From an uncultured Acidobacteriota bacterium (GTDB lineage Bacteria > Acidobacteriota > Thermoanaerobaculia > Gp7-AA8): a DNA stretch of 64,000 nt. The stretch is taken from the NCBI GenBank assembly GCA_963822445.1, contig CAWGHO010000001.1, positions 1,120,001-1,184,000 on the forward strand. Direction: 5' to 3'. The notes under the pieces are model-generated. The model did no database searches, was not told the origin of the DNA, and saw only the letters and a program-made list of their open reading frames with translations. Positions 1,725 through 46,359 of this stretch are shown piece by piece; the first letter of the stretch is position 1; every line of letters starts with the position of its first letter. The position numbers and the translations under genes were made by a program.

Positions 1725-4352
1725 ATGAAGCGCATCGCGTTGGCTGTCGCAATGACGCTCGCGTACGCGGCGACCATTCTCGGTCAGAACCCGCCCGCCG
1801 CGCGCGATCCGAAACAGGACGAGGCAAAGAGCGAGACGCTGCGCAAGCTTTCCCGCCGCGAGCGCAAGGCCCGCATCAGCAAACTGGAGATCCGCTTCCA
1901 GGACTTTCTCACCGACGTCGAGCCGATCGCCCCTTCGTCGGAGATCGACGCTTTCCTGGCGCTGGAGAGCGACGCCCAGCGCGACTCGTTCGTCGACGAC
2001 TTCTGGCGCCGCCGCGAAGCATTGCAGGGCGTCCCGAACCAGTCGTTCCGCGACGTGTACTACCAGCGGCTCGACATCGCCAAGGAGCAGTTCAAGCGGA
2101 TCAATACCGACCGGGCGAAGATGTTTCTCATTCACGGCCCGCCGGCGAACGTCCTCAGGACCGACTGCCAGCGCCTCCTCCAGCCCTCGGAGATCTGGAC
2201 GTATCCGGAGATCAAGGGCCTGGGCACGAGCGTGAAGCTGCTCTTCTACAAGCCTCGCAATGAAGCGGAGTACAAGCTCTGGAATCCGCTCGGCGGATCG
2301 ATGGCCCTCAACGATCTGGTCACCCAGGAAGTGGCCGGGATGGGCGGCGCGGGCGATGCCGCATCGCGACGCACTTCGATTGGCTCGGGCAGTCCGTACA
2401 ACTACGTCAGCCGCATCCAGCTCGAATGCATCGCCGGCGCCGAGATTTTGAAGGCCCTCACCCAGATGGTGCAGGGGCGCGTCGATCTCCTGAAGGTGTT
2501 CGAGCCAACGCGCGGCGAAACCACTGACACCGCGCGCCTGCTGCGGTCCGCGGTCATCACCAATCCCGACGCGCCGAAGCTCACCGCCGACTTCAGCGTC
2601 CGCTTTCCCGCCAAGGACGGCAGCCGGACCGACGTGCAGATGATGCTGCTCGTGCCGCGCTCCGAGCTCTCGCCGGCCGAAGTGAACGGCACGGAGATCT
2701 ACACGATCGACGTCGCCGGCGAGGTGTTGAAGGAAGGGAAGCTCTGGGAGAAGTACCGCTACCGCTTCGACTTCCCCACGGACATGAAAGGCGATCATCT
2801 CCCGATCGTGATCGACCGCCTGCTGCGGCCGAACAGCTACACCTCGCGCATCAAGGTCGTCGACGCGAACGGCGGCGCGGAAGTCATCGTCGAGCGCGAG
2901 CTGGAAGTGCCGGAGATCTTCGTTCCGGAGTCCGCGGAAGCAATCGCGGAGACGAAAGCCACGGAGGCCAAACCCGTTGAGCCGGTGGCTCAACCGATCG
3001 AAGTACCGGTTCGATCCGCGAGCTTGCGCCTCATTCCGCCGCCGGAAGGCATCGTCAGCGGGATCAAGGCCTTCGAGACGCTCATCGAAGGCGACGAGAT
3101 CAAAGGCGTGGAGTTCTGGCTCGACGGCCGGAAGATCGCCGTCCGCCGCTCCGCCCCTTTCGCCGTCGACCTCGACCTCGGCGAAGTCCCGCAGATGCGC
3201 CGCATCCGCGCGGTCGGCATCGACGCGGCCGGTAAGGCCATCGCCGGCGACGACATCCGCGTCAACACCGGCACGGAGCCGTTTCGCGTACGCATCACTT
3301 CCCCTCGCATCGCGCCGCATGTCGTCGGACCGACGCGCGTGGAAATGGATGTGAGCGTTCCGGACAGCGAGGAGCTGGCGTCGCTCGAGCTGTACTGGAA
3401 CGAGCGACGGGTCGCCACGATGTACGACGCGCCGTTCGTGCAGACCATCGACATTCCTTCGACCGACGGCGTCGGCTATCTGCGGGCCGTGGCCACGCTC
3501 AAAGGCGACACGCTGCCGCCGATCGAAGACGTGGTCATGATCAACACGCCCGCGTACATGGAGGAGCTCGACGTCCATCTCATCGAGCTCCCGACCACGG
3601 TCCTCGTCGGCGGCAAGCCCACCAGCCATCTCACCGAAAAGGACTTCAAGGTCCTCGAGGACGGCAAGCCGGTGACGATCGCGAAGTTCGAGTACGTGAA
3701 GAACCTTCCCCTGTCGATCGGCATGGCCGTGGACACGTCGGGCTCGATGCAGTTCCGGATGGAAGAAGCGCAGAAAGCCGGCGCGACGTTCTTCCAGAAG
3801 GTGCTGAAGAAAGGCGACAAGGCCTTCCTCCTCGCGTTCGACGAAAAGCCGGAGATGGTGCAGCGCTGGTCGAGCAAGCTCGCCGACATGCACGCCGGCC
3901 TGGCGAAGCTGCGCTCGCAGGAAACCACCGCGCTGTACGACGCGATCGTGGAGTCGCTCTACAACTTCCAGAGCGTGCGCGGGCAGAAGGCGCTGGTCCT
4001 GATCTCGGACGGCAAGGACACCGCGTCGAAGTACACCTTCGATCAGGCCCTCGAATACGCGCGCCGGGCCGCGGTGCCGATTTACGCGATCGGCGTCGCC
4101 ATCCGCAGCAACGACCTCGATGTGCGGCAGAAGCTGTCGAAGCTGTGCTCCGAAACGGGCGGAACGGTCTACCACATCGAGCGCGCCGCGGATCTCGATC
4201 GGATCTACGACGACATCCAGACCGAGCTCCGCTCCCAATACATCCTCGGCTTCTATCCAACCATCGACGAGAAGAGCAGGAACAAGTGGCGCGAGGTGGA
4301 CGTGAAGGTGTCGGAAGGCAAGGCCAGGACGCTCAGGGGTTACTACCCATGA
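1725..4352 (+). CDS. Secreted GWxTD-like / Ig-like / VWA domain protein (paralog 1)
   Basis: Signal peptide; FVDDFWRRR...TDRAKMFLIHGPP (GWxTD-like); VEFWLDG...APF Ig-like repeats; DTSGSM MIDAS motif, TALYDAI, LISDG, ELRSQYILGF (acidobacterial VWA). Confidence 0.85.
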   Translation: MKRIALAVAMTLAYAATILGQNPPAARDPKQDEAKSETLRKLSRRERKARISKLEIRFQDFLTDVEPIAPSSEIDAFLALESDAQRDSFVDDFWRRREALQGVPNQSFRDVYYQRLDIAKEQFKRINTDRAKMFLIHGPPANVLRTDCQRLLQPSEIWTYPEIKGLGTSVKLLFYKPRNEAEYKLWNPLGGSMALNDLVTQEVAGMGGAGDAASRRTSIGSGSPYNYVSRIQLECIAGAEILKALTQMVQGRVDLLKVFEPTRGETTDTARLLRSAVITNPDAPKLTADFSVRFPAKDGSRTDVQMMLLVPRSELSPAEVNGTEIYTIDVAGEVLKEGKLWEKYRYRFDFPTDMKGDHLPIVIDRLLRPNSYTSRIKVVDANGGAEVIVERELEVPEIFVPESAEAIAETKATEAKPVEPVAQPIEVPVRSASLRLIPPPEGIVSGIKAFETLIEGDEIKGVEFWLDGRKIAVRRSAPFAVDLDLGEVPQMRRIRAVGIDAAGKAIAGDDIRVNTGTEPFRVRITSPRIAPHVVGPTRVEMDVSVPDSEELASLELYWNERRVATMYDAPFVQTIDIPSTDGVGYLRAVATLKGDTLPPIEDVVMINTPAYMEELDVHLIELPTTVLVGGKPTSHLTEKDFKVLEDGKPVTIAKFEYVKNLPLSIGMAVDTSGSMQFRMEEAQKAGATFFQKVLKKGDKAFLLAFDEKPEMVQRWSSKLADMHAGLAKLRSQETTALYDAIVESLYNFQSVRGQKALVLISDGKDTASKYTFDQALEYARRAAVPIYAIGVAIRSNDLDVRQKLSKLCSETGGTVYHIERAADLDRIYDDIQTELRSQYILGFYPTIDEKSRNKWREVDVKVSEGKARTLRGYYP

Positions 4353-32184: not shown

Positions 32185-32213
32185 TTGACGGACATGCTGT
32201 AACAGCATAACTT
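32185..32213 (+). promoter_or_regulatory. Sigma70-type promoter with palindromic operator ATGCTG-TAA-CAGCAT (copy 1)
   Basis: TTGACG-N17-TAACTT; operator at 32194-32208; ATG 7 nt after the -10 box. Confidence 0.75.
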
Positions 32214-32220
32214 ACCGTTC

Positions 32221-33615
32221 ATGCAGAACGGAACGGCGCGAGTTGCATGCCTTTACGGCATATTGATTCTCTTCGCCCTCGAGTCCCACGCGGCCGGCCC
32301 TTTCCGCATCGGCGGCCCGGCCACCATCGATAACGACGCCAGCTGCGACATCTCCCTCCTTCCCGCTGCCACGCTGCTCCTCCCCTACTTCGAGGTCGAC
32401 ATCAACTCCTGGGCCGGAACCGGCGAGAACACCATCTTCACGATCACCAACACCGGCCAGCTCCCGCAGGTCGCGCGCGTCACGCTCTGGACCGATCTCT
32501 CCTATCCGGTCATCTCCTTCAACATCTACCTGACCGGATACGACGTACAGAGCATCAACCTCTACGACGTCATCGCTCGCGGTGAGATCGCTCCCGACGA
32601 CGGCACCGGCGCTGATGTGTCGCCGGTCGGCGAGCTGTCCGGCACCAGTGCCACAAAGGAATTCAACAATCCGCTCGTCGATGAGCTGACCTGCACCGAT
32701 TTGGTGGTGCAGATGGCCCCGCCGTACGTCACGCGCATGAAAAGCGCCTTCACCACCGGCAAGGTGCTGACCGCCGGCGAGCTCGGGGCCTGCGCTCAAG
32801 GCGGTTCGGCCCATTCGAACGCGGTCGGATACGCAACCGTCGACGTCGTCGGCCGGTGCGGCATCACGATGCCGAACGATCCCGTGTACTTCGCGAACGA
32901 CATCCGTTTCGACAACGTGCTCATGGGCGACTTCCACCAGATCAACGGCAACGAAGACTTCGCCCAGGGCGGGACGATGGTGCACATCCGAGCCATCCCC
33001 GAGGGGGGGACGCCGCAGACGCGGGATGACGATCGAGACTTCGAAGTGCACGTCCCCCGGACGTTCTACAGCGCCTATCAGGATCCCGCCCGGCCCACGC
33101 TCGATGCGCGACAACCCCTGCCGTCGCTGTTCGCGGCCCGGTGGATCAGCGGCGGTCCGAGCGGTTTCGAGACCGATTACAAGATCTGGCGCGAGGTCGG
33201 CCGCGAGCCCGACTCCTGCCGCGCGCATGCGTCCAACACCCAGGAGTTCCGGGAAATCGTCCGCTTCGATGAAGAGGAGAATGCCGAGGTCTTTCGATAC
33301 GAGTGCGTCGTGACGTGTCCGGCGTACGTGAGCAGCCTTCCGGCGACGTCGCGGGTCAGTGTCGCGCATGACTCCGACCTGCCCCAGAGCTCCCAGGGCG
33401 TCGTCAGCGGCTGGATGTACCTGAACCTCGACGATCGCGTGCGCGACGACATCGCCAGACAGGCCTGGGTGGTCGTCTCCATGCGCGCCGATGACCGCTT
33501 CTCCACCGACTTCGACGCCCTGGCCCTCGGCAACGGCTGCACGGCCCCTCTCGGGACGAGCGAAGCGAATCACGGCGACTTTCACATCGGTCCGGCGCGC
33601 AACAAGAGGAACTGA
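32221..33615 (+). CDS. Secreted array protein P1 (unknown 'PAATLLLPYFEVD' family)
   Basis: Signal peptide; family motifs SCDI.LLPAATLLLPYFEVD, RVTLWTD, GYATVDVV, HIRAIPEGG, FDEEEN, GWMYLNL, LGNGC. Confidence 0.9.
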   Translation: MQNGTARVACLYGILILFALESHAAGPFRIGGPATIDNDASCDISLLPAATLLLPYFEVDINSWAGTGENTIFTITNTGQLPQVARVTLWTDLSYPVISFNIYLTGYDVQSINLYDVIARGEIAPDDGTGADVSPVGELSGTSATKEFNNPLVDELTCTDLVVQMAPPYVTRMKSAFTTGKVLTAGELGACAQGGSAHSNAVGYATVDVVGRCGITMPNDPVYFANDIRFDNVLMGDFHQINGNEDFAQGGTMVHIRAIPEGGTPQTRDDDRDFEVHVPRTFYSAYQDPARPTLDARQPLPSLFAARWISGGPSGFETDYKIWREVGREPDSCRAHASNTQEFREIVRFDEEENAEVFRYECVVTCPAYVSSLPATSRVSVAHDSDLPQSSQGVVSGWMYLNLDDRVRDDIARQAWVVVSMRADDRFSTDFDALALGNGCTAPLGTSEANHGDFHIGPARNKRN

Positions 33616-34967
33616 TGCGCCGCGCGCTGGCAGCGATCGTCCTCTTCACCTCGATCGGTGCCGCGGCATCGACGATCGACAACGACGACAGTTGCGACAT
33701 CTCCCTGCTTCCCGCGGCGACGCTCCTTCTCCCCTATTTCGAGGTGGACATCGAGCCTGCCTACGGCACTACAGACACCACCATCTTCACGGTCACCAAC
33801 GTCAGCCAGTTTCCGCAGATCGCGCGGGTGACGCTCTGGACCGATCTCGCTTATCCCGTCTTCACGTTCAACCTTTATCTGACGGGTTACGACGTGCAGA
33901 GCATCAACCTCTTCGACGTCATCGCCCACGGCAAGGTCGCGCCCGACGACGGCACCGGCGTTGATGTCTCGCCGATCGGCCGGCTCTCCCGCGCAAACGC
34001 GAACCATCCCGCCTACGACAATCCGATCATCGACGAGCAATCGTGTGCCGGCCTGCCCGTCGAGTTGAACGCGGCCATGGTCGCGCGGATGCGGAGCGCG
34101 TTCACGACCGGCAGGGCCTCGGGCGCGAACGCGATGGCCGCGTGCAACACCGCGGGTGAAGTCCACATCAACGCCGCCGGCTACGTGACCATCGACGTGG
34201 TCGGACGCTGCGGCAGCACGATGCCCAACGACCCGGCCTACTACGCCGGCGACATCCGCTTCGACAACGTGTTGATCGGCGATTACCACCAGATCAGGAG
34301 TAGAGAGGATTTCGCCCAGGGCGGGACGATGGTGCACATCCGGGCCATCCCGGAGGGGGGAACGCCTGAGACGCGGGCCGGCGATTCGGACTATCGGGTG
34401 AATCTGCCGCGGACCTTCTACAGCGCGTACCAGGATCCGGCGCGGCCGCTCTTCGACGCTCGCCAGCCGCTTCCCTCGCTTTTCGCTGCGCGCTGGATTG
34501 AAGGGTTCGTCGGCGGTTTCGAGACTTTCTACAAGGTCTGGCGTGAGTCGCGGAACCCGGCCGCATGCCGCGATTACAACATCAACCGCCAGGAGGTGCG
34601 AGACCCGGTCCGCTTCGACGAGGAAGAAAACCCGGAGGCCTACGAGCACTTCTGCTTAGTCCCATGTTTACCGCCCATCTCGCGGATGTCCTCGAGCTCG
34701 CTCATCGGAACTGACCGCGACGACCATCTGCCGGCCAACGCGCAGGGCGCCGTCGCCGGCTGGATGTACCTGAACCTCGACGATCGTCAGAACGACGACG
34801 TCGCCAGGCAGGCCTGGGTGGTCGTCTCCATGCGCGCCGAGGATCGCTTTTCCACCGATTTCGATGCGCTCGCTCTCGGCAACGGCTGCTCTGCCCCGGT
34901 AGGAAGGAGCGAAGCGAATCCCTACGGCACCGTTTCCATCGGCCCCGCGCCGAACAAGAGGAAGTGA
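33615..34967 (+). CDS. Secreted array protein P2
   Basis: TGATG overlap; same motifs as P1. Confidence 0.9.
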   Translation: MRRALAAIVLFTSIGAAASTIDNDDSCDISLLPAATLLLPYFEVDIEPAYGTTDTTIFTVTNVSQFPQIARVTLWTDLAYPVFTFNLYLTGYDVQSINLFDVIAHGKVAPDDGTGVDVSPIGRLSRANANHPAYDNPIIDEQSCAGLPVELNAAMVARMRSAFTTGRASGANAMAACNTAGEVHINAAGYVTIDVVGRCGSTMPNDPAYYAGDIRFDNVLIGDYHQIRSREDFAQGGTMVHIRAIPEGGTPETRAGDSDYRVNLPRTFYSAYQDPARPLFDARQPLPSLFAARWIEGFVGGFETFYKVWRESRNPAACRDYNINRQEVRDPVRFDEEENPEAYEHFCLVPCLPPISRMSSSSLIGTDRDDHLPANAQGAVAGWMYLNLDDRQNDDVARQAWVVVSMRAEDRFSTDFDALALGNGCSAPVGRSEANPYGTVSIGPAPNKRK

Positions 34968-36346
34968 TGCACCACAAATCGACGATCGTCGCCCTGCTCC
35001 TGTTCGCGTTCGCGCGCATCGCCTTCGCCGACGGTCCGTTCCGCGTCGGTGGTCCGGCCACCATCGACAACGACGCCAGCTGCGACATCTCCCTGCTCCC
35101 GGCGGCCACACTGCTCCTGCCGTATTTCGAAGTCGACCTCAACTCGCGTGCCGAGAGAGCTGAGACCACGATCTTCACCATCACCAATACCAGCCAGGTC
35201 CCGCAGATCGCGCGGGTCACGCTGTGGACGGATCTCGCCTATCCCGTCATCACCTTCAACATCTATCTGACCGGCTATGACGTGCAGAGCATCAATCTCT
35301 ACGACGTCATCCGCCGTGGCGAAGTCGCGCCGGATGACGGCACGGGTTTCGACCGCTCGCCGGTGGGAGAGTTGTCAGGAACGACTCCGACCACTGACTT
35401 TGACAACCCGCTCATCGACGAGCAAACCTGTGTGAATCTGCCGGTCAAGCTGCCGGCCGCTCTCACGACGCGGATGCAGAGCGCCTTCACTACCGGCCGG
35501 GTGACCGGCGCCGACGGTTTGTCCGCGTGCGCGACCGCCGGCGGAACGCATCCGACCGCCGTCGGCTACGCGACGATCGACGTCGTCGGCCGGTGCGACA
35601 GCACCATGCCCAGCAGTCTCGCCTACTTCGCCAGCGACATCCGCTACGAAAACGTGCTGATGGGCGATTACCACCAGATCAACGGCGACGAGGACTTCGC
35701 CCAGGGCGGCACGATGGTCCACATCCGGGCGATTCCGGAGGGCGGCACGCCGCAGACGCGCGACGAGGCACCCGAGTTTCGAGTGAACCTGCCGCGTACG
35801 TTCTACGGCCGGTATCAGCATCCCGACCGGCCCAAACTCGACGCGCGACAGCCGCTGCCGTCGCTCTTCGCGGCACGGTGGATCGAAGGCGGCGCGGGTG
35901 GCTTCGAGACCTTCTACAAGGTCTGGCGGGAGTCGCGGAACCCGGCCGCATGCGGCAACTACAAAGCAAACGACCAGGTCGTGCGGGATGGCGTCCGCTT
36001 CGACGAGGAAGAAAACCCAATGACTTATGACCGCTATTGCTACATCACGTGTCCTTGGTGGGTCCCGCGGATGCCATCCGCGTCGCTGGTCGACGTATCC
36101 CGGGACGACGATCTGCCTACGAACACACAGGGCGCCGTCGCCGGCTGGATGTACCTCAACCTCGATGGTGAGGACGACGAGATCGCCGGACAGGCCTGGG
36201 TGGTCGTCTCCATGCGCTCCGAGGATCGCTTCTCCACGGACTTCGATGCGCTCGCTCTCGGGAACGGTTGCTCCGCGCCGGCGGGCCTGAGCGAAGCGGA
36301 CTACGGCGACTTTCCCATCGGCCCGGCGCCGAACAGGAGGAAGTGA
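34967..36346 (+). CDS. Secreted array protein P3
   Basis: TGATG overlap; same motifs; N-terminal two-thirds nearly identical to P4. Confidence 0.9.
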   Translation: MHHKSTIVALLLFAFARIAFADGPFRVGGPATIDNDASCDISLLPAATLLLPYFEVDLNSRAERAETTIFTITNTSQVPQIARVTLWTDLAYPVITFNIYLTGYDVQSINLYDVIRRGEVAPDDGTGFDRSPVGELSGTTPTTDFDNPLIDEQTCVNLPVKLPAALTTRMQSAFTTGRVTGADGLSACATAGGTHPTAVGYATIDVVGRCDSTMPSSLAYFASDIRYENVLMGDYHQINGDEDFAQGGTMVHIRAIPEGGTPQTRDEAPEFRVNLPRTFYGRYQHPDRPKLDARQPLPSLFAARWIEGGAGGFETFYKVWRESRNPAACGNYKANDQVVRDGVRFDEEENPMTYDRYCYITCPWWVPRMPSASLVDVSRDDDLPTNTQGAVAGWMYLNLDGEDDEIAGQAWVVVSMRSEDRFSTDFDALALGNGCSAPAGLSEADYGDFPIGPAPNRRK

Positions 36347-37731
36347 TGCACCACAAATCGACGATCGTCGCCCTGCTCCTGTTCGCGTTCGCGCGCATCG
36401 CCTTCGCGGACGGTCCGTTCCGCGTTGGCGGTCCGGCCACCATCGATAACGACGCCAGCTGCGACATCTCCCTCCTGCCTGCGGCCACGCTCCTGCTGCC
36501 GTACTTCGAAGTCGACATCACCTCTGCCGCCGGCACGGGCGAGACCACGATCTTCACGATCACCAATGTCAGCCAGGTCCCCCAGATCGCGCGGGTCACG
36601 CTGTGGACCGATCTCGCCTATCCGGTCTTCACCTTCAACATCTACCTGACCGGCTATGACGTGCAGAGCATCAATCTCTACGACGTCATCCGCCGTGGCG
36701 AAGTCGCGCCGGATGACGGCACCGGTTTCGACCGCTCGCCGGTGGGAGAGTTGTCCGGAACGACAGCGACCACGGACTTCGACAACCCGCTCATCGACGA
36801 GGGAACCTGTGTGAATCTGCCGGTCAAACTGCCGGCCGCTCTCACAACCCGGATGCAGAGCGCCTTCACCACCGGCCGCGTGACGGGCGTCGACGGTTTG
36901 TCCGCGTGCTCGACCGCCGGCGGAACGCATCACAACGCCGTTGGTTACGCGACGATCGACGTCGTCGGCCGGTGCGACAGCACCATGCCCAGCAGCCTCG
37001 CCTACTTCGCCAGCGACATCCGCTACGAGAACGTGCTCATGGGCGATTACCACCAGATCAACGGCGACGAGGACTTCGCCCAGGGCGGCACGATGGTCCA
37101 CATCCGCGCCATTCCGGAGGGGGGCACGCCGCAGACACGCGATGACGAACCGGCGTACCGGGTCAACCTGCCGCGCACGTTTTACGGGGCGTATCAGCAT
37201 CCCGACCGCCCCACGCTCGACGCGCGTCAGCCGCTGCCGTCTCTTTTCGCAGCCCGCTGGGTCAGCGGCGGCGCCTCGGGATTCGAGACCTACTTCAAGA
37301 TCTGGCGCGAGGGACGCGGCAGACTCGAGTCCTGTGCGGCTTACAAGACGAACGCGTTCGCCGCCCAGGATTCAGTGCGGTTTGACGAGGAGGAGAATCC
37401 AGAGGCGTCGAATAACTACTGCTTTCCGCCGTACTACTGCTTTGTCCCGCTATTCAATCCGACTTCGCTCATCGATAGCGAGAGCGACGACTTCCCGCCG
37501 AATACCCAGGGCGCCATCGGCGGCTGGATGTATCTGAACCTCGACGATCATCAAGTCGACGGCGACGCCCGCCAGGCCTGGGTGGTCATCTCCATGCGCG
37601 CCGAGGATCGCTTCTCCACCGACTTCGATGCTCTTGCTCTCGGGAACGGCTGCTCAGCGCCGGTGGGCATCAGCGAAGCGAAAGGCGGCGACCTTCCCAT
37701 CGGCCCGGCGCCGAACAAGAGGCAGCCATGA
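36346..37731 (+). CDS. Secreted array protein P4
   Basis: TGATG overlap; signal peptide identical to P3. Confidence 0.9.
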   Translation: MHHKSTIVALLLFAFARIAFADGPFRVGGPATIDNDASCDISLLPAATLLLPYFEVDITSAAGTGETTIFTITNVSQVPQIARVTLWTDLAYPVFTFNIYLTGYDVQSINLYDVIRRGEVAPDDGTGFDRSPVGELSGTTATTDFDNPLIDEGTCVNLPVKLPAALTTRMQSAFTTGRVTGVDGLSACSTAGGTHHNAVGYATIDVVGRCDSTMPSSLAYFASDIRYENVLMGDYHQINGDEDFAQGGTMVHIRAIPEGGTPQTRDDEPAYRVNLPRTFYGAYQHPDRPTLDARQPLPSLFAARWVSGGASGFETYFKIWREGRGRLESCAAYKTNAFAAQDSVRFDEEENPEASNNYCFPPYYCFVPLFNPTSLIDSESDDFPPNTQGAIGGWMYLNLDDHQVDGDARQAWVVISMRAEDRFSTDFDALALGNGCSAPVGISEAKGGDLPIGPAPNKRQP

Positions 37732-38954
37732 GAATGGCGCTCGCTGCCATGTTCCTGCTCGCGATCGGAGCCACCGCGCAGCCGGTGACGAACAACGACG
37801 CCAGTTGCGACATCTCCGTCGCCCCGGCGGCCACGTTGCTGCTGCTCCTCTTCGAGGTGAATCTCACCGCTCCCGCGGGGACCGGCGAGACGACGATCTT
37901 CACGGTCACGAACACAGGGAAATCGCCGCAGATCGCGCGGGTCACGTTGTGGACTGACCTCGCCTACCCGGTCTTCACCTTCAACATCCCGCTCGCCGGT
38001 TACGAGGCGCAGAGCATCAACCTCTTCGACGTCCTCGGTCGTGGCGAGATTCGCGGCCGCGCAGGTTCCTGCGCGAATTTCACCCCGCGGCTGGATCCAC
38101 CGGTTCGCACCCGGATGCAGCGGGCGTTCACCAGGGGCACAGTCAACGGCCTTCCGCCTTTGCCCGACTGCCCCGCCGTTGGCGCGCGGCACGCCAATGC
38201 CATCGGGTACGCGACGATCGACGTCGTCGGTGATTGCGACTCGTCGATGCCCACCGATCGTGAGTACTTCTCCAACGACATCCGCTTCGACAACGTTCTC
38301 CTCGGCGACTACCAGCAGATCAACGGCGACGAGGATTTCGCGCAGGGAACACCGATGGTGCACATCCGGGCCATTCCGGAAGTGATGGCGCCGCGCACGT
38401 TTTACGGGCTGTATCAGCACCCCGCCCGTCCGTCGTTCGACGCGCGGCAGCCACTGCCCTCTTTGTTCGCGGCGAGGTGGATCGACGGGCCGGGCGTGGA
38501 GACGCACTACAAGATCTGGCGCGAGTCTCTCGACGACTTCCTCGCATGTGCCGGCTATGCGCAAAACTTCCGGCCGGTCAGGGAAGTGGTTCGCTTCGAT
38601 GAAGACGAGAACGTCGAGACCACCGCATCGGACTATCTTTTCCTCGGCCCCTCCACCGATGTCTCCCTCCGGGCGACGTCCGTGGTCGACGCCGCGGCCC
38701 ATCACAACTTCCCCGATAACAGCGACGGAGCCGTCGGAGGGTGGATGTACTTCAACCTCGACGGCCTCAATCGGGTTACGCCCCATCCTTCCCAGGGCTG
38801 GGTGACGATCTCCATGCGCGCGCAAAACCGGTTCTCCATCGACTTTGACGCGGCGTATCTCGGCAACGGATGCAGCGCGCCGGTGGACATCAGCGAGGCC
38901 ACCGCCTGGGGAGGGCCTCCCATCGGCCCGGCGCCGAACAAGAGGCAGCATTGA
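37728..38954 (+). CDS. Secreted array protein P5
   Basis: ATGA overlap; same motifs with two internal loop deletions; close to P6. Confidence 0.9.
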   Translation: MRMALAAMFLLAIGATAQPVTNNDASCDISVAPAATLLLLLFEVNLTAPAGTGETTIFTVTNTGKSPQIARVTLWTDLAYPVFTFNIPLAGYEAQSINLFDVLGRGEIRGRAGSCANFTPRLDPPVRTRMQRAFTRGTVNGLPPLPDCPAVGARHANAIGYATIDVVGDCDSSMPTDREYFSNDIRFDNVLLGDYQQINGDEDFAQGTPMVHIRAIPEVMAPRTFYGLYQHPARPSFDARQPLPSLFAARWIDGPGVETHYKIWRESLDDFLACAGYAQNFRPVREVVRFDEDENVETTASDYLFLGPSTDVSLRATSVVDAAAHHNFPDNSDGAVGGWMYFNLDGLNRVTPHPSQGWVTISMRAQNRFSIDFDAAYLGNGCSAPVDISEATAWGGPPIGPAPNKRQH

Positions 38955-40216
38955 AGCCGGCGCTCGCCGCCGTGATGCTGCTTGCCTTCGCGGCCACCGC
39001 CCAACCCGTGACGAACAACGACGCCAGTTGCGACATCTCCGTCGCCCCGGCGGCCACGTTGCTGCTGCCCTTTTTCGAAGTAAATCTCACCGTTCCCGCC
39101 GGGACCGGCGAGACGACGATCTTCACCGTCACGAACACAGGGAAATCGCCGCAGATCGCGCGGGTAACGCTATGGACCGACCTGGCCTACCCGGTCTTTA
39201 CCTTCAACATTCCTCTCGCCGGTTACGAGGCGCAGAGCATCAACCTCTTCGATGTCCTCGGTCGTGGCGCGATTCGCGGCGGCTCGGAATCATGCGGAGG
39301 TTCCCTGCGACGGTTGGATCCACCGGTCCTCGCCCGGATGCAGCGGGCGTTCACCACGGGCAAAGTCAACGGCCTTCCGTCTTTACCCGACTGTCCCTTC
39401 GTCGGTATGCGGCACGCAAATGCCATCGGGTACGCGACCATCGACGTCGTCGGTGATTGCGACTCGTCGTTGCCCACCGACGGCGACTACTTCTCGAACG
39501 ACATCCGCTTCGACAACGTGCTCCTCGGCGACTACCAGCAGGTCAAGGGCGACGAAGATTTCGCGCAGGGCGGAACGATGGTGCATATCCGCGCGATCCC
39601 CGAGGGAGGTACCGTGCAAAGCCGCGCCGGCGATCCCAGATTCGCGGTGAATGCACCGCGCACCTTTTACAACGTCTACCAGCATCCCGCCCGTCCGCGG
39701 TTCGACGCCCGTCAAGCCTTGCCCTCGCTGTTCGCGGCGAGGTGGATCGAAGGAGACCGGAGCGGTTTCGAAACGCACTACAAGATCTGGCGCGAGTCTC
39801 GTGACAACCACATCTCCTGCGTGGCTTATGCGCGGAACTACAGGCCGGTCCTGGAAACGGTGCGCTTCGATGAAGAGGAAAACTTCGAAACGATGGCACC
39901 TGAGATCCTCGTCCCCGGCGCCCCCTATGAGCTCTACCTTCCCGCGGCGTCCATCACGGACATCGCGGCGAACAAAGACTTCCCACTCAACACCATGGGG
40001 GCGATCGCCGGGTGGATGTATCTCAACCTCGACGACCTGGATCGCGACAGCCATGCCTCCCAGGGCTGGGTTTCCGTCTCCATGCGCGCGGAGGATCGAT
40101 ACTCCACGGACATGGACGCGGCGTATCTCGGCAATGGCTGCAGCGCACCGGTGGATACCAGCGAGGCGACTCTCTGGGGGCCAGCCATCGGGCCGGCGCC
40201 GAACACCCGTAAGTAA
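38951..40216 (+). CDS. Secreted array protein P6
   Basis: TTG start overlapping TGA; signal peptide (M)KPALAAVMLLAFAATA; same motifs. Confidence 0.88.
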   Translation: MKPALAAVMLLAFAATAQPVTNNDASCDISVAPAATLLLPFFEVNLTVPAGTGETTIFTVTNTGKSPQIARVTLWTDLAYPVFTFNIPLAGYEAQSINLFDVLGRGAIRGGSESCGGSLRRLDPPVLARMQRAFTTGKVNGLPSLPDCPFVGMRHANAIGYATIDVVGDCDSSLPTDGDYFSNDIRFDNVLLGDYQQVKGDEDFAQGGTMVHIRAIPEGGTVQSRAGDPRFAVNAPRTFYNVYQHPARPRFDARQALPSLFAARWIEGDRSGFETHYKIWRESRDNHISCVAYARNYRPVLETVRFDEEENFETMAPEILVPGAPYELYLPAASITDIAANKDFPLNTMGAIAGWMYLNLDDLDRDSHASQGWVSVSMRAEDRYSTDMDAAYLGNGCSAPVDTSEATLWGPAIGPAPNTRK

Positions 40217-40235
40217 CAATTTCGAAAAACCGCCC

Positions 40236-40265
40236 TTGACTGTGATGCTGTAGCAGCATTAAGTT
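40236..40265 (+). promoter_or_regulatory. Promoter with palindromic operator ATGCTG-TAG-CAGCAT (copy 2)
   Basis: TTGACT-gtg-ATGCTGTAGCAGCAT-TAAGTT; same spacing as copy 1. Confidence 0.75.
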
Positions 40266-40369
40266 ATTGCCGACATGGGCTTCCTCGGCGTACCGACCAG
40301 CCTCAACCATCTCTCAGCGCCTTCCATCAGCACGCGTAAATCCTTCAAAAGGAATGGGATCACAGCATA

Positions 40370-41701
40370 ATGCGAATACGCTCCCTGCTTCTTTCCATCA
40401 CGCTGTTGCTTCTCGCCATCTCCGTTCACGCCGCCACCTTTCCAGCCGGTGCGCCCAGCACCACCAGCAACGACGACAGTTGCGACATCGGCGTCTTTCC
40501 CGCGGCCACGTTGCTCCTGCCCTACTTCGAGGTGGACCTCGGGTCAGCGGCCGGACAATCGACCACCGTCTTCAGCATCACCAACACGGGCAGGCTTCCC
40601 CAGGCCGTACGGGTCACGCTCTGGACCGACTACGGCTATCCGGCCTTCACCTTCCCGGTCTATCTCACCGGTTACGACCAGCAGGTGATCAATCTCTTCG
40701 ATGTCATCGCCCGAGGGGCGATCGCGCCCGAAGACGGAACGGGGTCGGATGTTTCCCCCCTCGGCGAGCTTTCGCGAAACGCGGAAGGAGAGGTGCTGGA
40801 CAACCCCGGCCTGAACGAAGCCAGTTGCCGCAGTCTCGCCGTCAACCTGCCGTCGATCTTCGTCCAGCGGATTCGCCAGGCTTTCACCCTCGGCCGCATC
40901 CCTTCGACAGTCATCGACGGGGGCTGCGAAAACATCGGCGGCGCGCACGCGAAAGCAGTGGGCTACGCGACGATCGACGTCGTCGGTTCATGCGACTTCA
41001 CCCTGCCGACGCAACCCTCGTATTTCACGAGCCACATCCGCTACGACAACGTCCTGACCGGCGATTACCAGCAGATCGACGGCGCCAACGATTTCGCGCA
41101 GGGCGGCCCGCTCGTGCACATCCGGGCGATCAGCGGCGGCTCCAGCAGCCGTCCGCAAGCGCCTCCGTTTCCGCGCACGTTCTACGGCCACCTCCAGCCC
41201 GCTGCGAGCCGCACCGCCGATCGGCGGCAGCCGCTTCCCTCGAGGTTCGCGGCTCGCTGGATCGAAGGCAGCGGCGCGTCCTTCGAGACCTTCTACAAGA
41301 TCTGGCGCGGAGTCGACACCGCCGCGACCGCGACCTGTGCGCAGTACGCCGCCAACGGGCAGATGCCGGTGATGGACATCATTCGATTCGACGAGGAAGA
41401 GAATCTGGAGACGCTGGAAGATCCCCCACTCAGCAATCCACCAAGCCAGAAGGATCCCCGTTTTCCGGCGACGTCACTGCTCAACGTCCGGCAGAGTGAG
41501 TCGCTGCCGGACAACACACAGGGCGCGGTCGGCGGATGGATGTACTTCAATCTCCACAATCGGGGCGAGGGACCAGCCGCTCAGGCCTGGGTGACCGCCT
41601 CGATGCGATCGGAAGGACGCTTCTCGGTGGACACCGACGCCATCAGCCTCGGCAACGGCTGTACGCCCGCGAACACGCAGACGACAGGAGGCCGGCCGTG
41701 A
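40370..41701 (+). CDS. Secreted array protein P7
   Basis: Signal peptide; same family motifs. Confidence 0.9.
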   Translation: MRIRSLLLSITLLLLAISVHAATFPAGAPSTTSNDDSCDIGVFPAATLLLPYFEVDLGSAAGQSTTVFSITNTGRLPQAVRVTLWTDYGYPAFTFPVYLTGYDQQVINLFDVIARGAIAPEDGTGSDVSPLGELSRNAEGEVLDNPGLNEASCRSLAVNLPSIFVQRIRQAFTLGRIPSTVIDGGCENIGGAHAKAVGYATIDVVGSCDFTLPTQPSYFTSHIRYDNVLTGDYQQIDGANDFAQGGPLVHIRAISGGSSSRPQAPPFPRTFYGHLQPAASRTADRRQPLPSRFAARWIEGSGASFETFYKIWRGVDTAATATCAQYAANGQMPVMDIIRFDEEENLETLEDPPLSNPPSQKDPRFPATSLLNVRQSESLPDNTQGAVGGWMYFNLHNRGEGPAAQAWVTASMRSEGRFSVDTDAISLGNGCTPANTQTTGGRP

Positions 41702-42978
41702 AACGCATCGCTCTGATTCTGCTGCTCCTCGCCACTCCTCTCTTCGCCGCAACGTCGCGCAACGACGACTCCTGCGACATCGGACTCTTCCCCGCGGCGA
41801 CGCTCCTGCTCCCCTATTTCGAAGTCGACATCGCCTCGCCTGAAGGCAGCGGCGAGACCACGATCTTCACGGTCACGAACACGAGCCCACTGCCGCAGGC
41901 GGCGCGGGTCACGCTCTGGACCGACTTTGCCTACCCGGTGACCTCCTTCAACATCTTTCTCACCGGCTACGACGTCCAGAGCGTCAACCTGTACAACGTC
42001 ATCGTGAAGGGATTGATCGAAGAAACCGGCAGTGACGTATCGCCGCGCGGGCCCACTTCCTCGGCCGATAACAACAGGTTGAACGAGGCCAGCTGCACGG
42101 ACATCCCCGCGCAACTGCCGGCCGCGTTCCGCGAACGGATGAAGAGCGCCCTCACCCTGGGCAAGGCACCCGCCATCGGCGAAGGGGAGGCGTGCAACAC
42201 GGCCGGTGGCGTGCACACGAACGCGATCGGGTACGCGACCATCGATGTCGTCGGCGTCTGCTCGGCCACGCGGCCGATCGACGCGGTCTACTTCACGCAC
42301 GAGATCCGATTCGACAACGTGCTCATGGGCGACTACATCCAGGTCAACGGCGCGGAAGATTTCGCCCAGGCCAATCCCATGGTGCACATCCGGGCCATTC
42401 CCGAGGGCGGTGAGGTTTCCACGCGCCGCAAGACGAACATGCCCCGCACGTTCTACAGCCGCCTGCAGAGCGGCGGGACCCTCGGCGCCGACGGACGGCA
42501 GCCGCTCCCGGCGAAGTTCGGCGCGCGCTGGATCTCAGGGGGCGCGAATGGCTTCGACACGTTCTACAAAATCTGGCGCGAGTCGAAGGCTACGTCGCAG
42601 GCGGTCTGTTCGGCGTATCCAGCGGGGACCCATCAGTCTTTCGCGCCCGTCCGCTTCGACGAAGAGGAGAATCCCGAGACGATATCTCCACACACCGGCA
42701 CTCCCCCCGGTGACGTGACCCCGAGAACGCTTGCGACGAGCCTTTCCCGCGTGGACGACGAGAGCCGTTTCCCGCCGAACACACACGAAGCCGTCGGCGG
42801 CTGGATGTACCTCAATCTCGACGACGGACGCGACGACACGATCGCCAGCCAGAACTGGGTCGTGGCGTCGATGCGTGTGGAAGACCGGTTCTCCGTCGAT
42901 ATTGAGGCTACGCAACTTGGCAACGGCTGCACGCCGGCCGAGACTGGTATCGAGGAACTGGCCGCCCGCGGGAACTGA
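41698..42978 (+). CDS. Secreted array protein P8
   Basis: GTGA overlap; (M)KRIALILLLLATPLFA signal; same motifs. Confidence 0.9.
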   Translation: MKRIALILLLLATPLFAATSRNDDSCDIGLFPAATLLLPYFEVDIASPEGSGETTIFTVTNTSPLPQAARVTLWTDFAYPVTSFNIFLTGYDVQSVNLYNVIVKGLIEETGSDVSPRGPTSSADNNRLNEASCTDIPAQLPAAFRERMKSALTLGKAPAIGEGEACNTAGGVHTNAIGYATIDVVGVCSATRPIDAVYFTHEIRFDNVLMGDYIQVNGAEDFAQANPMVHIRAIPEGGEVSTRRKTNMPRTFYSRLQSGGTLGADGRQPLPAKFGARWISGGANGFDTFYKIWRESKATSQAVCSAYPAGTHQSFAPVRFDEEENPETISPHTGTPPGDVTPRTLATSLSRVDDESRFPPNTHEAVGGWMYLNLDDGRDDTIASQNWVVASMRVEDRFSVDIEATQLGNGCTPAETGIEELAARGN

Positions 42979-43009
42979 TTTCTTGACATTCCTGCGCTCG
43001 GGGCGGACC

Positions 43010-43027
43010 ATGTTAAAAATTTGACAT
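43010..43027. promoter_or_regulatory. Candidate BlaI-family operator ATGTTAAA-AA-TTTGACAT
   Basis: Near-perfect AT-rich palindrome overlapping the repressor start codon; TTGACA -35 box at 42983-42988. Confidence 0.55.
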
Positions 43028-43415
43028 GAGCCCGACCGAACCCAAAGGCCTCAGCCGCCGCGAGCGCCAGATCCTCGACGTCATCTACCACCTCGGACGC
43101 GCCAGCGCGTCCGAGGTGCTCGAGCGGATGGCCGATGCTCCGACGTACACGACCGTGCGCGGTCTGCTGCGCGTGCTCGAGTCCAAAGGCCACGTCCGGC
43201 ACGAAGAGGAAGAGGGCCGCTACGTTTACTTCCCGACCATGACCAAGCAGCGCGCTGCGAAGAGCGCACTCACGCATGTGGTCAGCACGTTCTTCGATGG
43301 CTCGCCGTCGCAGGCCATGGCGGCGCTCCTCGGCAGCGAACGCCGTTTGAGCGAAGACGAGATCGAGCGGCTGGCTGAATTGATCGAGCGCGCTCGCGAG
43401 AAGGAGAAGTCGTGA
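43026..43415 (+). CDS. BlaI/MecI/CopY family transcriptional repressor
   Basis: LSRRERQILDVIY, YTTVRGLLRVLESKGHV, GRYVY, FFDGS. Confidence 0.93.
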   Translation: MSPTEPKGLSRRERQILDVIYHLGRASASEVLERMADAPTYTTVRGLLRVLESKGHVRHEEEEGRYVYFPTMTKQRAAKSALTHVVSTFFDGSPSQAMAALLGSERRLSEDEIERLAELIERAREKEKS

Positions 43416-44835
43416 TTCTGAAGATCACGCTGGTCCTGCTCGCGGCGCTCGTTGCGTCCGCGTTGTTGCGCCGCGCCGCGGCGGCGACGCGTCACGCGGT
43501 GCTGGCGGCGGGGCAAATCGCGGCGCTTTGCTTGCCGCTGCTCACCTTCATCGTTCCGCCGGTTACGGTTTCTGCCCCCGGTGTAGTGTGGGCCTCCGGC
43601 CTACCTCTCGTTCCCCCGCCCCAGGGTAGGCCGGAGGCCCACACTACACGCGCGATCCGGGTGACAGACCTTTGGGGCTCCTCGGCATCCTCGCCATCGC
43701 GCTGCTTCGCATCACGAGCTACCTGCGCGCGGCGGCCGTCGTTCGCCGCGCCGAATCGTTCGGCAACGTGTTGCTCAGCGATGAAGTCGATCAGCCGATG
43801 ACCTTCTTCACGCGCATCATCCTTCCGCGCAGCGCGAGCTCCTGGACGGACGAGCGGCTCCGCGCCGTGCTCCTTCACGAAGGCGCGCACGTTGCGCGGC
43901 ATGACACGTTCTTCGGCATGGTCAGCGATGCGCTCTGCGCGATTTACTGGTTCCATCCGCTGGCCTGGCTGACCGCGCGGCGCGCGCGGCTCGAGCGCGA
44001 GCGCGCTTGCGATGACGTCGTGCTCTCGCAGGGCGTGGGGCGCTTCGATTACGCCGCGGCACTGCTCGATGTCGCGCGGACCGTTCGACGCCGTCACGCC
44101 ACCGCGGCCATCGCCATGGCTGAGCGTCCGCATCTCGAACAGCGCGTGCGGGCGATCCTCGACTCGGCGACGAATCGCCGCGCGACCCGCGCCGCGCGCA
44201 CCGCCGTCTTCGTCACCGTTTTCGCGACCGCGCCGTTGCTCGCCGCGCTGACCACGATCTCCATTCCGCTTCCGCGCTCCGGCGAGCCCGATCTGCTCAA
44301 CGATGCCGTCACCTCTCCGTTCAGCGAGCGCATCGGCGCGCCGTTGGTGAGTGTGTCCGCGAGCGGGCCCGATGCGGCGTTCATCGAGACGATGCAGAAG
44401 GTGGCGACCATCGCGCCGCGGACCTCGATCGACTTCGTCGCCGATCGCGCGCGATGGGCGCTGGCGCAGGTGAATGACGGTGAGCTCGTGACGCCGCTGA
44501 TCGACGCGCTCGACCACAGCGACTGGCGCGTCCGCGCCTACGCCTCCTGGTGCCTCGGCCTCAGCGCGGACCGCCGGGCCACGGACCCGCTGGTGGCGAT
44601 GCTCGAGGATCCCGTCTGGCGCGTGCGCGCATCGGCCGCGGACGGTCTTGCCCGCCTCGCCGATCCCGCAGCCTCCGCCGCCATGCGCCGCGCGCTCAGC
44701 GACGATGCCTGGCAGGTGCGCATGCCGGCGGTGCAGTACTTCGCCGCCATCGGTGGCAGCCGTGAATTGTTCGAGACCATGCGGCGCGACCGGCACATCG
44801 CCGTGTGCATGACCGCCGAGGAGGCTTTGCGATGA
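43412..44835 (+). pseudogene. BlaR1-type M56 metallopeptidase with HEAT repeats; frameshift near 43671-43677 (real or sequencing error)
   Basis: N-terminal part (LLRRAAAATRH) in ORF 43412-43801. HEGAH, YWFHPLAW, ERACDD and the HEAT repeats lie in ORF 43672-44835. One extra base at tttgggg would join them. Confidence 0.75.
43581..43649. repeat. GTAG-type REP doublet (perfect 25-bp inverted repeat) inside the M56 gene
   Basis: gtgtagtgtgggcctccggcctacc ... ggtaggccggaggcccacactacac; 69 bp, in frame. Confidence 0.88.
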
Positions 44836-46334
44836 AACGGCGTTCCCTTTTTTTGGCTCTGCATGTCACTTTTTTGACATCAACCCTTTCCGCGCAACTC
44901 CCCGAGCTCGACACGTACATCGAGAACGCCCGCAAGCAGTGGGAGTGTCCCGGCATCGCCGTGGCCGTGGTCAGGGACGGCAAGGTTCTGATGACGAAAG
45001 GCTACGGCGTCCGCACGCTCGGCAGGCCGGAGCTCGTCGACGAGAACACGATGTTCGACACGGCGTCGCTGTCGAAGTCCTTCACCGCTGCCGCGATCGC
45101 CACGCTCGTCGACCAGGGAAAAATGCGCTGGGACGATCCCGTGCGAAAGCATCTGCCCACGCTCGAGTTTCCCGATGCCTATCGCAGCGCGAACGTCACC
45201 GTCCGCGACCTCCTCGCCCATCGCATCGGTCTCGAGCCGGCGAATTTCATGATGCGCATGACGAACTATCCGACCGAGGAGGTGCTGCGGCGGGTGCGGT
45301 TCCTCGAGGAGCGCGATCCGTTCCGCAGCACGTTCACCTACTTCAACATCGGTTACGCGATCGCCGGTGAAGCCGCCGCAGCGGCCGCAAAGATGTCCTT
45401 CGCGGATCTGGTCCGCACGAGTCTCGTCGAGCCGCTGGGCATGCGCGACACGACCGTCGCCGTCGATCACGCGCGCGCGTCGAATCACGCTTCATCGCAT
45501 GCGCGGATCGACGGAGTGCATCAGCCCATTCGCACGCGCAAGCGGATGAACATTCAGGGCGCGAACGCAGTGAACTCCACGGCCAAAGACATGGCCAGAT
45601 GGCTGCTCTTCAACCTCGGCGACGGGACGTGGGAAGGAAAAAAGATCCTGACGCCGGAGGCGCTCGCCGAGATGCATTCGCCGCACTCGATCATCCCCAC
45701 CACCCCGGCCATGCGCGCCGCGCGCGGCGTTCACTTTTTCGGCGGGTACGGTCTGGGATGGCAAGTCATGGACTATCGCGGCCACAAGATGCTCTGGCAC
45801 AGCGGCAACGCCGACTGCATGCCCGTGTACATGGCCATCCTGCCGAACGAGAAGATCGGCGTGCTGGTGATGACGAACAGCTGGGAAGCGGGAACGCTGC
45901 ACGGCATGATCGCCGGCCGCATCCTCGACACGCTCCTCGGCGACGTGCCGCTGAAGGATTCTGCGGCCGAAGGCCTGGAGGGATTCCGCAACGCGGCGAA
46001 GCGGGCTGTCGAGGAACGCGAGGCAGTCGAGAAAGCGCGCATCACCGGCACGAAACCCTCGCGGCCGCTCGATGCCTACGCCGGGACTTACGTCGACACC
46101 ATGCATGGCGACATGGTCGTCAAGCATGAAAACGGACGGCTGACGCTGACGTTCGGCGGCGGCGAGCAGGCCGATCTCGAGCACTGGCACCACGACGTCT
46201 TCAGCGTCCGCTGGCACGACCGCGCCTACGAGTGGGCGGACACGTTCATCGCCTTCGCACTGGACGCGTCAGGGACGCCGAAGAGGTTCGAGATGAAGTT
46301 GTATCGGGACCTGATCGAGGCGGTACGGCGTTGA
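44832..46334 (+). CDS. Serine hydrolase (beta-lactamase class C-like) with C-terminal DUF3471-like domain
   Basis: PGIAVAVV, SLSK (SxxK), LLAHRIG, YFN, YGLGW, HSG; YAGTY...HG C-terminal domain. Confidence 0.9.
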   Translation: MKRRSLFLALHVTFLTSTLSAQLPELDTYIENARKQWECPGIAVAVVRDGKVLMTKGYGVRTLGRPELVDENTMFDTASLSKSFTAAAIATLVDQGKMRWDDPVRKHLPTLEFPDAYRSANVTVRDLLAHRIGLEPANFMMRMTNYPTEEVLRRVRFLEERDPFRSTFTYFNIGYAIAGEAAAAAAKMSFADLVRTSLVEPLGMRDTTVAVDHARASNHASSHARIDGVHQPIRTRKRMNIQGANAVNSTAKDMARWLLFNLGDGTWEGKKILTPEALAEMHSPHSIIPTTPAMRAARGVHFFGGYGLGWQVMDYRGHKMLWHSGNADCMPVYMAILPNEKIGVLVMTNSWEAGTLHGMIAGRILDTLLGDVPLKDSAAEGLEGFRNAAKRAVEEREAVEKARITGTKPSRPLDAYAGTYVDTMHGDMVVKHENGRLTLTFGGGEQADLEHWHHDVFSVRWHDRAYEWADTFIAFALDASGTPKRFEMKLYRDLIEAVRR

Positions 46335-46359
46335 CAAAAATGCTGATACGGCATAGTTT
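46331..46359 (+). promoter_or_regulatory. Promoter with operator ATGCTG-ATA-CGGCAT (copy 3)
   Basis: TTGACA-N17-TAGTTT; operator at 46340-46354 in the same register as copies 1 and 2. Confidence 0.72.

Follow-up and report, generated by a model that had tools for sequence, protein, structure and literature searches.

A palindrome in the spacer of sigma70-type promoters as the probable operator of a class-wide regulon in Thermoanaerobaculia

Three promoters in a stretch of 64,000 nt from an uncultured member of the Thermoanaerobaculia (Acidobacteriota) share a 17-bp palindromic element located between their -35 and -10 boxes. The window, as the whole 64-kb stretch is called here, corresponds to G000:C1:1120001-1184000, that is, to part of contig C1 of a genome (G000) of 6.0 Mb and 64.5% G+C. 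The three promoters precede an array of paralogous genes for putatively secreted proteins, the P family. The best overall explanation is that the palindrome is the spacer operator of a class-wide regulon and that an XRE-family helix-turn-helix (HTH) protein, P0121, is the likely repressor, a reading that the sequence comparisons make probable. The motif, its conservation and placement, its association with the P family and the linkage of an HTH gene to that family are direct observations on the genomes.

A sequence-only reading of the window had reported three strings of the form TTGAC-N4-ATGCTG-N3-CRGCAT, starting at 32185, 40236 and 46331 and followed at 17-18 nt by the -10-like boxes TAACTT, TAAGTT and TAGTTT. 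The letters and coordinates agree, and the measured spacers are 17, 18 and 17 nt (Table 1). The open reading frame map likewise confirms that the sites open the three sub-clusters of the array, ahead of P1-P6, P7-P8 and P9-P11. The motif ATGCTGNNNCRGCAT is found at three places (five strand matches) in the window, against a mean of 0.02 in shuffled sequence, and none of 100 shuffles reaches five. When the composite 24-mer is searched with up to three mismatches, the three sites are the sole matches in the window (0.20 expected). Genome-wide, the exact 15-mer occurs at five places, three of them inside the window. With one mismatch it gives 57 strand matches compared to 105 for the reversed control, and since there is no enrichment at this level, these loose matches are mostly noise. 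The motif shared by the three promoters is real and far from chance.

Table 1 Coordinates of the promoters, operators, genes and RNA discussed in the text (window positions unless a contig of G000 is given)
Feature	Location	Strand	Description
Promoter 1	32185..32213	+	-35 TTGACG 32185-32190, 17-nt spacer, -10 TAACTT 32208-32213
Site 1 letters			TTGAC 32185-32189, ATGCTG 32194-32199, CAGCAT 32203-32208
Operator 1 (putative)	32193..32209	.	CATGCTG-TAA-CAGCATA, 1 mismatch vs TATGCTG-N3-CAGCATA, within spacer
Promoter 2	40236..40265	+	-35 TTGACT 40236-40241, 18-nt spacer, -10 TAAGTT 40260-40265
Site 2 letters			TTGAC 40236-40240, ATGCTG 40245-40250, CAGCAT 40254-40259
Operator 2 (putative)	40244..40260	.	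GATGCTG-TAG-CAGCATT, 2 mismatches vs 17-bp consensus
Promoter 3	46331..46359	+	-35 TTGACA 46331-46336, 17-nt spacer, -10 TAGTTT 46354-46359
Site 3 letters			TTGAC 46331-46335, ATGCTG 46340-46345, CGGCAT 46349-46354
Operator 3 (putative)	46339..46355	.	AATGCTG-ATA-CGGCATA, 2 mismatches vs 17-bp consensus
P1-P6	32221..40216	+	six tandem paralogs, ~400-465 aa each, signal peptides, tightly packed/overlapping
P7-P8	40370..42978	+	two paralogs; leader of ~100 nt ahead of P7 ATG 40370
P9-P11	46371..50446	+	three paralogs; P9 ATG (46371) 11 nt past -10
Hairpin sRNA	G000 C1 ~1504440-1504525	-	same promoter/operator; ~80-100 nt (element C1:1504418-1504559 = L059:4418-4559)
New matrix match	C2:2382740	+	ahead of ABC-2 permease gene
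New matrix match	C3:464945	-	ahead of gene for 765-aa fn3 protein
New matrix match	C1:1403050	+	ahead of gene for 932-aa signal-peptide protein
P0121 gene	G000 C2:2382372-2382728		118-aa XRE-family HTH protein, HTH_3; divergent from ABC-2 gene

It is scarcely credible that the three sites are chance occurrences or leftovers of a duplication that copied a paralog together with its upstream region. The paralogy of the downstream genes speaks for it, but the alignment of the three upstream regions fails beyond a block of ~30 nt, and they are therefore not a recently copied upstream segment. Moreover, the same block is found ahead of non-homologous genes and a small RNA (sRNA), the shuffle expectation is the 0.02 given above, and in the closest syntenic relative (L132) the operator is present solely ahead of the first gene of the array, with no equivalent of promoter 2.

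The architecture of the element was derived from a sequence logo of 21 sites, namely the three window sites and 18 sRNA promoters that were found via a 13-nt core of the sRNA and not via the palindrome, which leaves the logo essentially free of bias. This core occurs at 24 places in 21 of 35 genomes of the genus; 20 of these are the RNA locus and four are false positives in coding sequence. Two of the 20 sRNA promoters were left out, one with a spacer longer by 1 nt and one cut by a contig end. A single genome, G002, supplies one of the 21 logo sites as well as one of the ten sRNA loci among the composite-motif matches described below. TTGAC of the -35 box is kept in 20-21 of 21 sites and is followed by three unconserved positions, the left half-site TATGCTG (18-21 of 21 per position) and an A/T-rich triplet. 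The right half-site consists of C (17/21), an unconserved position, G (16/21) and CATA (20-21/21), after which an unconserved position, A (15/21), another unconserved position and an invariant T (21/21) complete the element. The last two bases of the palindrome open the -10 box (TANNNT), whose A2 is kept in 20 and T6 in all 21 sites, and the flanks of the element are unconserved. Window site 2, with 18 nt, is the only one of the 21 whose spacer departs from 17 nt. In the sRNA promoters, transcription is predicted to start at the base of the sRNA hairpin. Because of this conservation and of the position of the predicted start, the element is assigned as a putative sigma70-type promoter with a -35 box TTGAC, a spacer of 17-18 nt that is filled by the palindrome, and a -10 box TANNNT, real as judged by its conservation.

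Variation in the right half-site also bears on the idea that the palindrome works as a hairpin in the transcript (7-bp stem, 3-nt loop), for example as a 5' stabiliser or a processing site. Transcription would include the palindrome in families f12 and f8, where it directly follows the -10 box. However, the three window promoters and the 18 sRNA promoters all have their predicted start downstream of it, and the replacements in the right half-site (C at pairing positions, in five of 21 sites at each of two positions) are never compensated in the left. It is therefore the sequence that is conserved and not the pairing, and a role as an RNA hairpin is very improbable.

Specificity was assessed in genome G000, of which ~89% is coding according to crude gene calls. 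The 17-mer with up to two mismatches is found at 14 sites, all of them intergenic, compared to seven intergenic sites among 24 for four control palindromes of the same composition. With three mismatches the search is dominated by noise (38 sites, six intergenic), and, like the 15-mer with one mismatch, it was not used for regulon calls. A position weight matrix of the 30-nt element yields seven matches of at least 29 bits, all intergenic and oriented toward the start of a gene or RNA, and the next best match scores 20.9. Four of the seven belong to the training set (the three window promoters and the sRNA promoter at C1:1504530(-)), and the remaining three are new (Table 1). Palindromes without the TTGAC register are found upstream of secreted proteins of 448, 691 and 751 aa, where they overlap the predicted -10 box or start. 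The earlier view that the regulon equals the P family therefore holds for the linkage of the sub-clusters but is too narrow, as the same promoter and operator appear to drive the sRNA, the ABC-2 permease gene and unrelated genes for secreted proteins. Nor do all family members have the site: the P-family gene at C1:214986 has no operator within ~300 nt before its start, and that at C2:2385612, likewise outside the window, has a variant arrangement with a site 17 nt upstream of a TTGACT promoter.

The gene for the 448-aa secreted protein is the first of an operon that also encodes two unknown proteins and a pyridoxal phosphate-dependent decarboxylase. It is preceded by a perfect 25-bp palindrome, tcgaTATGCTG-aat-CAGCATAtcga (C1:1383262-1383300), that overlaps a predicted TTGACC-16-TATGCT promoter. 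The TATGCTGAATCAGCATA variant is also present in G023, G073 and G126, while G019 (as a 15-mer), G094 and G125 have it with one mismatch.

Among relatives, the composite 24-mer with up to one mismatch gives 15 matches in 11 of 24 genomes of the same genus (three for the control) and none in 16 genomes of other genera. Of the 14 matches with a clear assignment, ten are located before the hairpin sRNA, between convergent genes, one before a P-family homolog and three before other genes with signal-peptide-like starts. The palindrome itself reaches further. Its perfect 17-bp form has 18 copies in 121 genomes of the class, where ~0.6 would be expected from composition; allowing one mismatch raises the number to 57 sites (27 for the control), which are spread over 34 of the 121 genomes and 23 of 60 genera. 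The evaluation of its association with the P family covered 585 kb in 55 independent loci with 147 P-family starts. There, all seven sites with up to two mismatches and 23 of 32 with up to three fall in the interval from -60 to +300 nt upstream of a P-family start, compared to one of 19 for a control palindrome. Similarly, in 20 further genomes from seven families the stretch ahead of the P gene linked to the HTH gene was inspected, and 12 of the 20 have a site with up to three mismatches there, against one of 20 for the control.

The position of the palindrome relative to the promoter differs between lineages. It is found inside the spacer in this genus, directly after the -10 box in f12 and f8 (TTGACA-17-TAGGTT-a-TATGCTG...), and overlapping the -10 box in f15, where the left half acts as the -10 (TATAGTC-N3-CAGCATA). 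In the HTH-linked P gene of f1 and f3 and in a secreted-protein gene of f6, it is located ~17-28 nt upstream of the -35 box. Half-sites vary between lineages too, TGACATA in f8 being an example. A fixed palindrome at a movable position argues for a protein operator and not for an element contacted by the polymerase. The alternative is that the block is an intrinsic promoter feature and needs no separate protein: the polymerase or an alternative sigma factor might read it as a spacer element, or it might consist of a pair of -10-like hexamers in opposite orientation (TATGCT on each strand). This alternative is consistent with the fit of both TATGCT and TAGCAT to TANNNT, with the use of one palindrome half as the predicted -10 box at C1:1383273 and in the f15 and f12 loci, and with the better conservation of the left half compared to the right. 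Against it, the 7-3-7 symmetry is kept while the distance to TTGAC shifts (in the spacer, after the -10 box, 17-28 nt upstream), a 6-Mb genome has only ~14 sites, and in the window the left half lies 3 nt past the -35 box, a place where no sigma contact is known to read seven specific bases. An intrinsic feature is thus improbable.

As a protein operator, TATGCTG-N3-CAGCATA (17 bp, half-site centres 10 bp apart) would fill the promoter spacer, and a homodimeric HTH protein bound to it would cover approximately -28 to -12 and exclude RNA polymerase. The sub-operons P1-P6, P7-P8 and P9-P11 would then switch together, presumably as part of a class-wide regulon that in G000 would also comprise an sRNA resembling an anti-Shine-Dalgarno sequence, several secreted-protein genes and a cassette of XRE-HTH, ABC-2 permease, FG-GAP, P-family and giant PKD genes. 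The most likely regulator would be P0121, acting as an autoregulated repressor. Inferred here from sequence are the binding itself, whether it represses or activates, which protein is responsible and where transcription begins. Sites overlapping -35 to +10 argue for repression. Accordingly worded, the earlier proposal that a dimeric regulator in the spacer runs a family regulon stands as to a sequence-specific spacer operator and a predicted dimeric factor, and the regulon appears wider than the family.

In locus L128 (G063:C8, ~4001-4045), two operator-like palindromes, TATGCTGTAACAGCATA followed by GGCTGTAACAACATA, are arranged in tandem 7 nt apart ahead of a gene start. This arrangement suggests cooperative binding at some promoters.

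The regulator had been described as not identifiable, which is correct for the window; a candidate is found on another contig. The product of the P0121 gene matches PF01381 (HTH_3) with 53.2 bits (gathering cut-off 23) over residues 14-67, and no NCBIfam model exceeds its cut-off. The new matrix match at C2:2382740 lies in the 55-nt gap between the ABC-2 permease gene and the divergent P0121 gene. Of 61 relatives, 55 encode exactly one ortholog, and across the class the gene is found in 95 of 121 genomes. The HTH gene and a P-family gene are found 3-7 kb apart in 18 of the 55 P loci, and this linkage is seen in at least 34 of 121 genomes, from families f1, f3, f7, f8, f12, f13 and f15. The recognition helix QSDLSRME is invariant across the class at overall identities down to 42-58%. 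In nine of 16 distant lineages, the control region of the HTH gene contains a palindrome-like site (two to four mismatches) of a quality reached by at most 5% of shuffles. Genus g22 (16 of 18 genomes of f14) as well as G073, G035 and G091 lack both the HTH gene and the P family. P0121 is assigned on these grounds, which are the standard comparative-genomic ones for pairing a motif with a regulator, and it is likely to be an autoregulated repressor acting at the operator. A complex prediction for the P0121 homodimer (alignment A3, two copies) gave a score of 0.14 (mark 0.42) and is taken as neutral. G002 and G041 each supply one of the 30 HTH loci that were fetched, G030 supplies one of the 16 HTH regions from distant lineages as well as a row of A3, and G136 is counted in the presence tallies of the HTH and the P family; no conclusion hangs on these four genomes.

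In G000, the cassette around the P0121 gene (L052, C2:2380485-2392507) encodes the XRE-HTH protein, a TPR protein and a secreted 337-aa protein on one strand and the ABC-2 permease, an FG-GAP protein, a P-family protein and a 1741-aa PKD protein on the divergent strand. This is the ancestral cassette of the system. Its P gene is 62% identical to P3. The order HTH(-), ABC-2, FG-GAP, P family and large protein recurs in f12 (L119), with a perfect palindrome ahead of the P gene. The secreted 337-aa protein beside the HTH gene is conserved in f12 (25% identity, E 2e-12), and the TPR protein beside it is not conserved there.

A number of observations weigh against an operator bound by P0121. Firstly, the promoter assignment is not without difficulty: the three -10 boxes match TATAAT at only three of six positions (T1, A2, T6), and a generic TTGACA/TATAAT sigma70 scan did not call the three promoters, which for promoter 1 is explained by this poor -10 match. 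The degenerate right half-site overlaps the -10 box, and both TATGCT and AGCATA fit TANNNT, so that part of the enrichment near promoters could reflect promoter function. Secondly, sites with their centres near -62 (C2:2385410) or -72 point to activation at a subset of promoters, and the term repressor may be incomplete. Thirdly, the distribution is imperfect. Families f8 and f10 have both the HTH gene and the P family, yet the palindrome with up to one mismatch is found in none of 14 and none of 12 genomes, respectively; G073 has a perfect palindrome with neither HTH nor P family detected; and at least five genomes with the P family lack the HTH gene, whereas at least two show the reverse. 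Finally, in this genus the HTH gene's own site, TATGCTATTGAACAATA, differs at four of 14 positions, with shuffle fractions of 0.045-0.135 that are not individually significant. The intergenic region of the HTH gene, TTGACTTTTATGCTATTGAACAATAAAGT, is nearly invariant in the 28 readable loci of genus g1 among the 30 fetched (exceptions are L070, which is without upstream sequence, L088, which belongs to another genus, and L089, a divergent g1 locus that keeps only part of it), and something else may constrain the site, which is itself nearly invariant.

The last two points are also the ones that favor a genuine operator bound by another transcription factor, with P0121 being merely a member of the regulon; the imperfect phyletic match concerns G073, G081, G151, G028, G039 and G083. 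On the other side, no other regulator gene recurs beside motif sites, the recognition helix of the HTH protein does not vary where the motif is kept, and operator-like sites are present in the HTH control region in the nine distant lineages mentioned above. The BlaI gene of the window (43026-43415) was considered and rejected, in line with the earlier judgement: its upstream region of ~48 nt (42979-43025) has no palindrome, and BlaI adjoins the family in one of 55 loci compared to 18 of 55 for the HTH gene. A different regulator is therefore seen as a serious but rather unlikely alternative, and P0121 is retained as the probable one.

The sRNA whose promoter contains the operator has orthologs in L023-L050. 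In 20 of 20 orthologs, an uninterrupted GC-rich helix of 8-17 bp closes a loop that is conserved, rich in C and U (CCUCCUUGCGUGA ... CUUCUCCUG) and complementary to Shine-Dalgarno sequences. Between orthologs, the arms vary by paired changes, namely GGUGCCCCGG/CCGGGGCACC, GGUGCUCCGG/CCGGAGCACC, AUCGCCCCGG/CCGGGGCGAU and GGCGCCCCGG/CCGGGGCGCC, and z-scores of single-sequence folds are -6.5, -2.4, -3.5, -1.3 and -5.4. RNAalifold applied to a MAFFT alignment of the 20 orthologs returned a poor consensus of six pairs because the arms were misaligned; per-sequence folds and a stem search were used instead. Rfam 15 has no match to the sRNA in nine loci at the gathering score, nor in three loci at E<=1. 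In L059, the matches at E<=1 are miRNA models only and concern an unrelated hairpin (L059:2751-2831). The possibility that the opposite strand encodes the signal recognition particle RNA was rejected, as the true one is located at C2:1378580-1378678 (66 bits). Judging by its sequence, the sRNA looks like a new family of this genus with a loop that mimics the anti-Shine-Dalgarno sequence.

The P family, which is found in 98 of 121 class genomes, has more than 3,697 homologs, all annotated as hypothetical or unnamed, and the records holding them carry the name Thermoanaerobaculia (phylum Acidobacteriota). The proteins match no family of Pfam or NCBIfam, and a protein atlas returns solely hypothetical protein clusters. 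The structure model of P1 (window 32221-33615) is all-beta and of middling quality (pLDDT 68), and a Foldseek search against the PDB gave no match at E<=1e-3. According to VIA-align, the N-terminal beta-sandwich (approximately residues 34-258) resembles Thermotoga TM1070 (1nc7, Z 8.7), followed by the Anabaena sensory-rhodopsin transducer (2ii7, Z 5.9) and galectins (Z <=4). A function as carbohydrate-binding secreted proteins is no more than a lead.

The distance between promoter and start codon is short at several of the genes. The ATG of P1 lies 7 nt past the -10 box, and its mRNA is therefore predicted to be leaderless. In three motif-bearing genes of congeners (L022, L025, L034), the start codon is found 6-7 nt past the -10 box. 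Several mRNAs of the regulon are thus expected to carry little or no leader. Between promoter 2 and P7 there is a leader of ~100 nt (window 40275-40370) that contains a 31-codon open reading frame, with its ATG 9 nt past the -10 box and its TAA overlapping the ATG of P7 (TAATG). This could be a leaderless upstream open reading frame coupled to P7.

A trio of BlaI, BlaR1-like and beta-lactamase-family genes is located between P8 and P9. The BlaR1-like gene (Peptidase_M56 and HEAT repeats) is split into two overlapping frames, 43412-43801 and 43672-44835, of which the second alone matches Pfam. A frameshift, a sequencing error or a split gene could account for this.

The closest functional analogues of the proposed system appear to be SinR and DdrO/RDRM, and the arrangement resembles a classical repressor operator within core promoters. 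SinR of Bacillus subtilis is an XRE-type master repressor of biofilm-matrix operons, and its 7-bp half-sites overlap the promoters of operons for secreted and surface proteins. P0121 is also small; its HTH_3 domain is N-terminal, a short helical part at the C-terminus is conserved, and a PDB sequence search with P0121 matches SinR chains over the HTH (E 3e-4 to 8e-4). In contrast to these similarities, the resemblance is confined to the generic HTH, the half-site sequence differs, the phylum is another one, and no SinI-like antirepressor was identified here. The neighbors of P0121 are the TPR protein and the secreted 337-aa protein. DdrO/RDRM of Deinococcus is an XRE-family repressor with a 17-bp palindrome in the promoters of a dispersed, autoregulated regulon. 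The size of P0121 is comparable (118 aa against ~120-130 aa), the 17-bp operator TATG...CATA likewise overlaps promoters, and P0121 shows a weak sequence match to DdrOC (6rnz, E 0.008). The spacing of the conserved blocks differs, however, the regulon comprises secreted proteins and an sRNA and not DNA-repair genes, and no metalloprotease partner is found beside the P0121 gene (the gene neighborhood was looked at, the rest of the genome was not searched).

LexA boxes, the repressors of phages 434 and lambda and the C proteins of restriction-modification systems share the general design, namely a palindrome over -35/-10 with half-sites one helical turn apart and, as predicted here, a dimeric HTH protein and autoregulation. 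C.BclI is the second-best PDB sequence match of P0121 (2b5a, E 5e-7). These classical repressors differ in sequence, and the system described here is chromosomal, class-wide, single-copy and off mobile elements, with the secretome as its target. A palindrome between -35 and -10 is also typical of MerR-type activators. MerR promoters have over-long spacers of 19-20 bp. Activation of the MerR type was rejected, given the spacers of 17, 18 and 17 nt. No MerR-family gene is linked.

The mechanism, a repressor operator within a promoter, is textbook. Thermoanaerobaculia are a widespread, mostly uncultured class of soil and sediment Acidobacteriota, and keyword searches of the literature found nothing on transcriptional regulation in this class. 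Supplied here are a promoter architecture, an operator consensus, a candidate regulator and a first regulon that comprises an uncharacterised secreted family and a new sRNA, all of it testable with synthetic DNA and heterologous expression, that is, without culturing. A more far-reaching possibility, put forward tentatively, is that P0121, an XRE-type protein that is single-copy and class-wide, acts via the one 17-bp operator as the master switch of a programme of surface and secreted proteins in Thermoanaerobaculia. This programme would include expanding P arrays of lectin-like secreted beta-sandwich proteins, FG-GAP/PKD giants with their ABC-2 exporter and a new sRNA family of the anti-Shine-Dalgarno type; it would be repressed from within core promoters, many of them giving leaderless mRNAs, and may be activated from -62/-72. 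If true, this would be a SinR-like lifestyle switch in a class without a characterised regulator.

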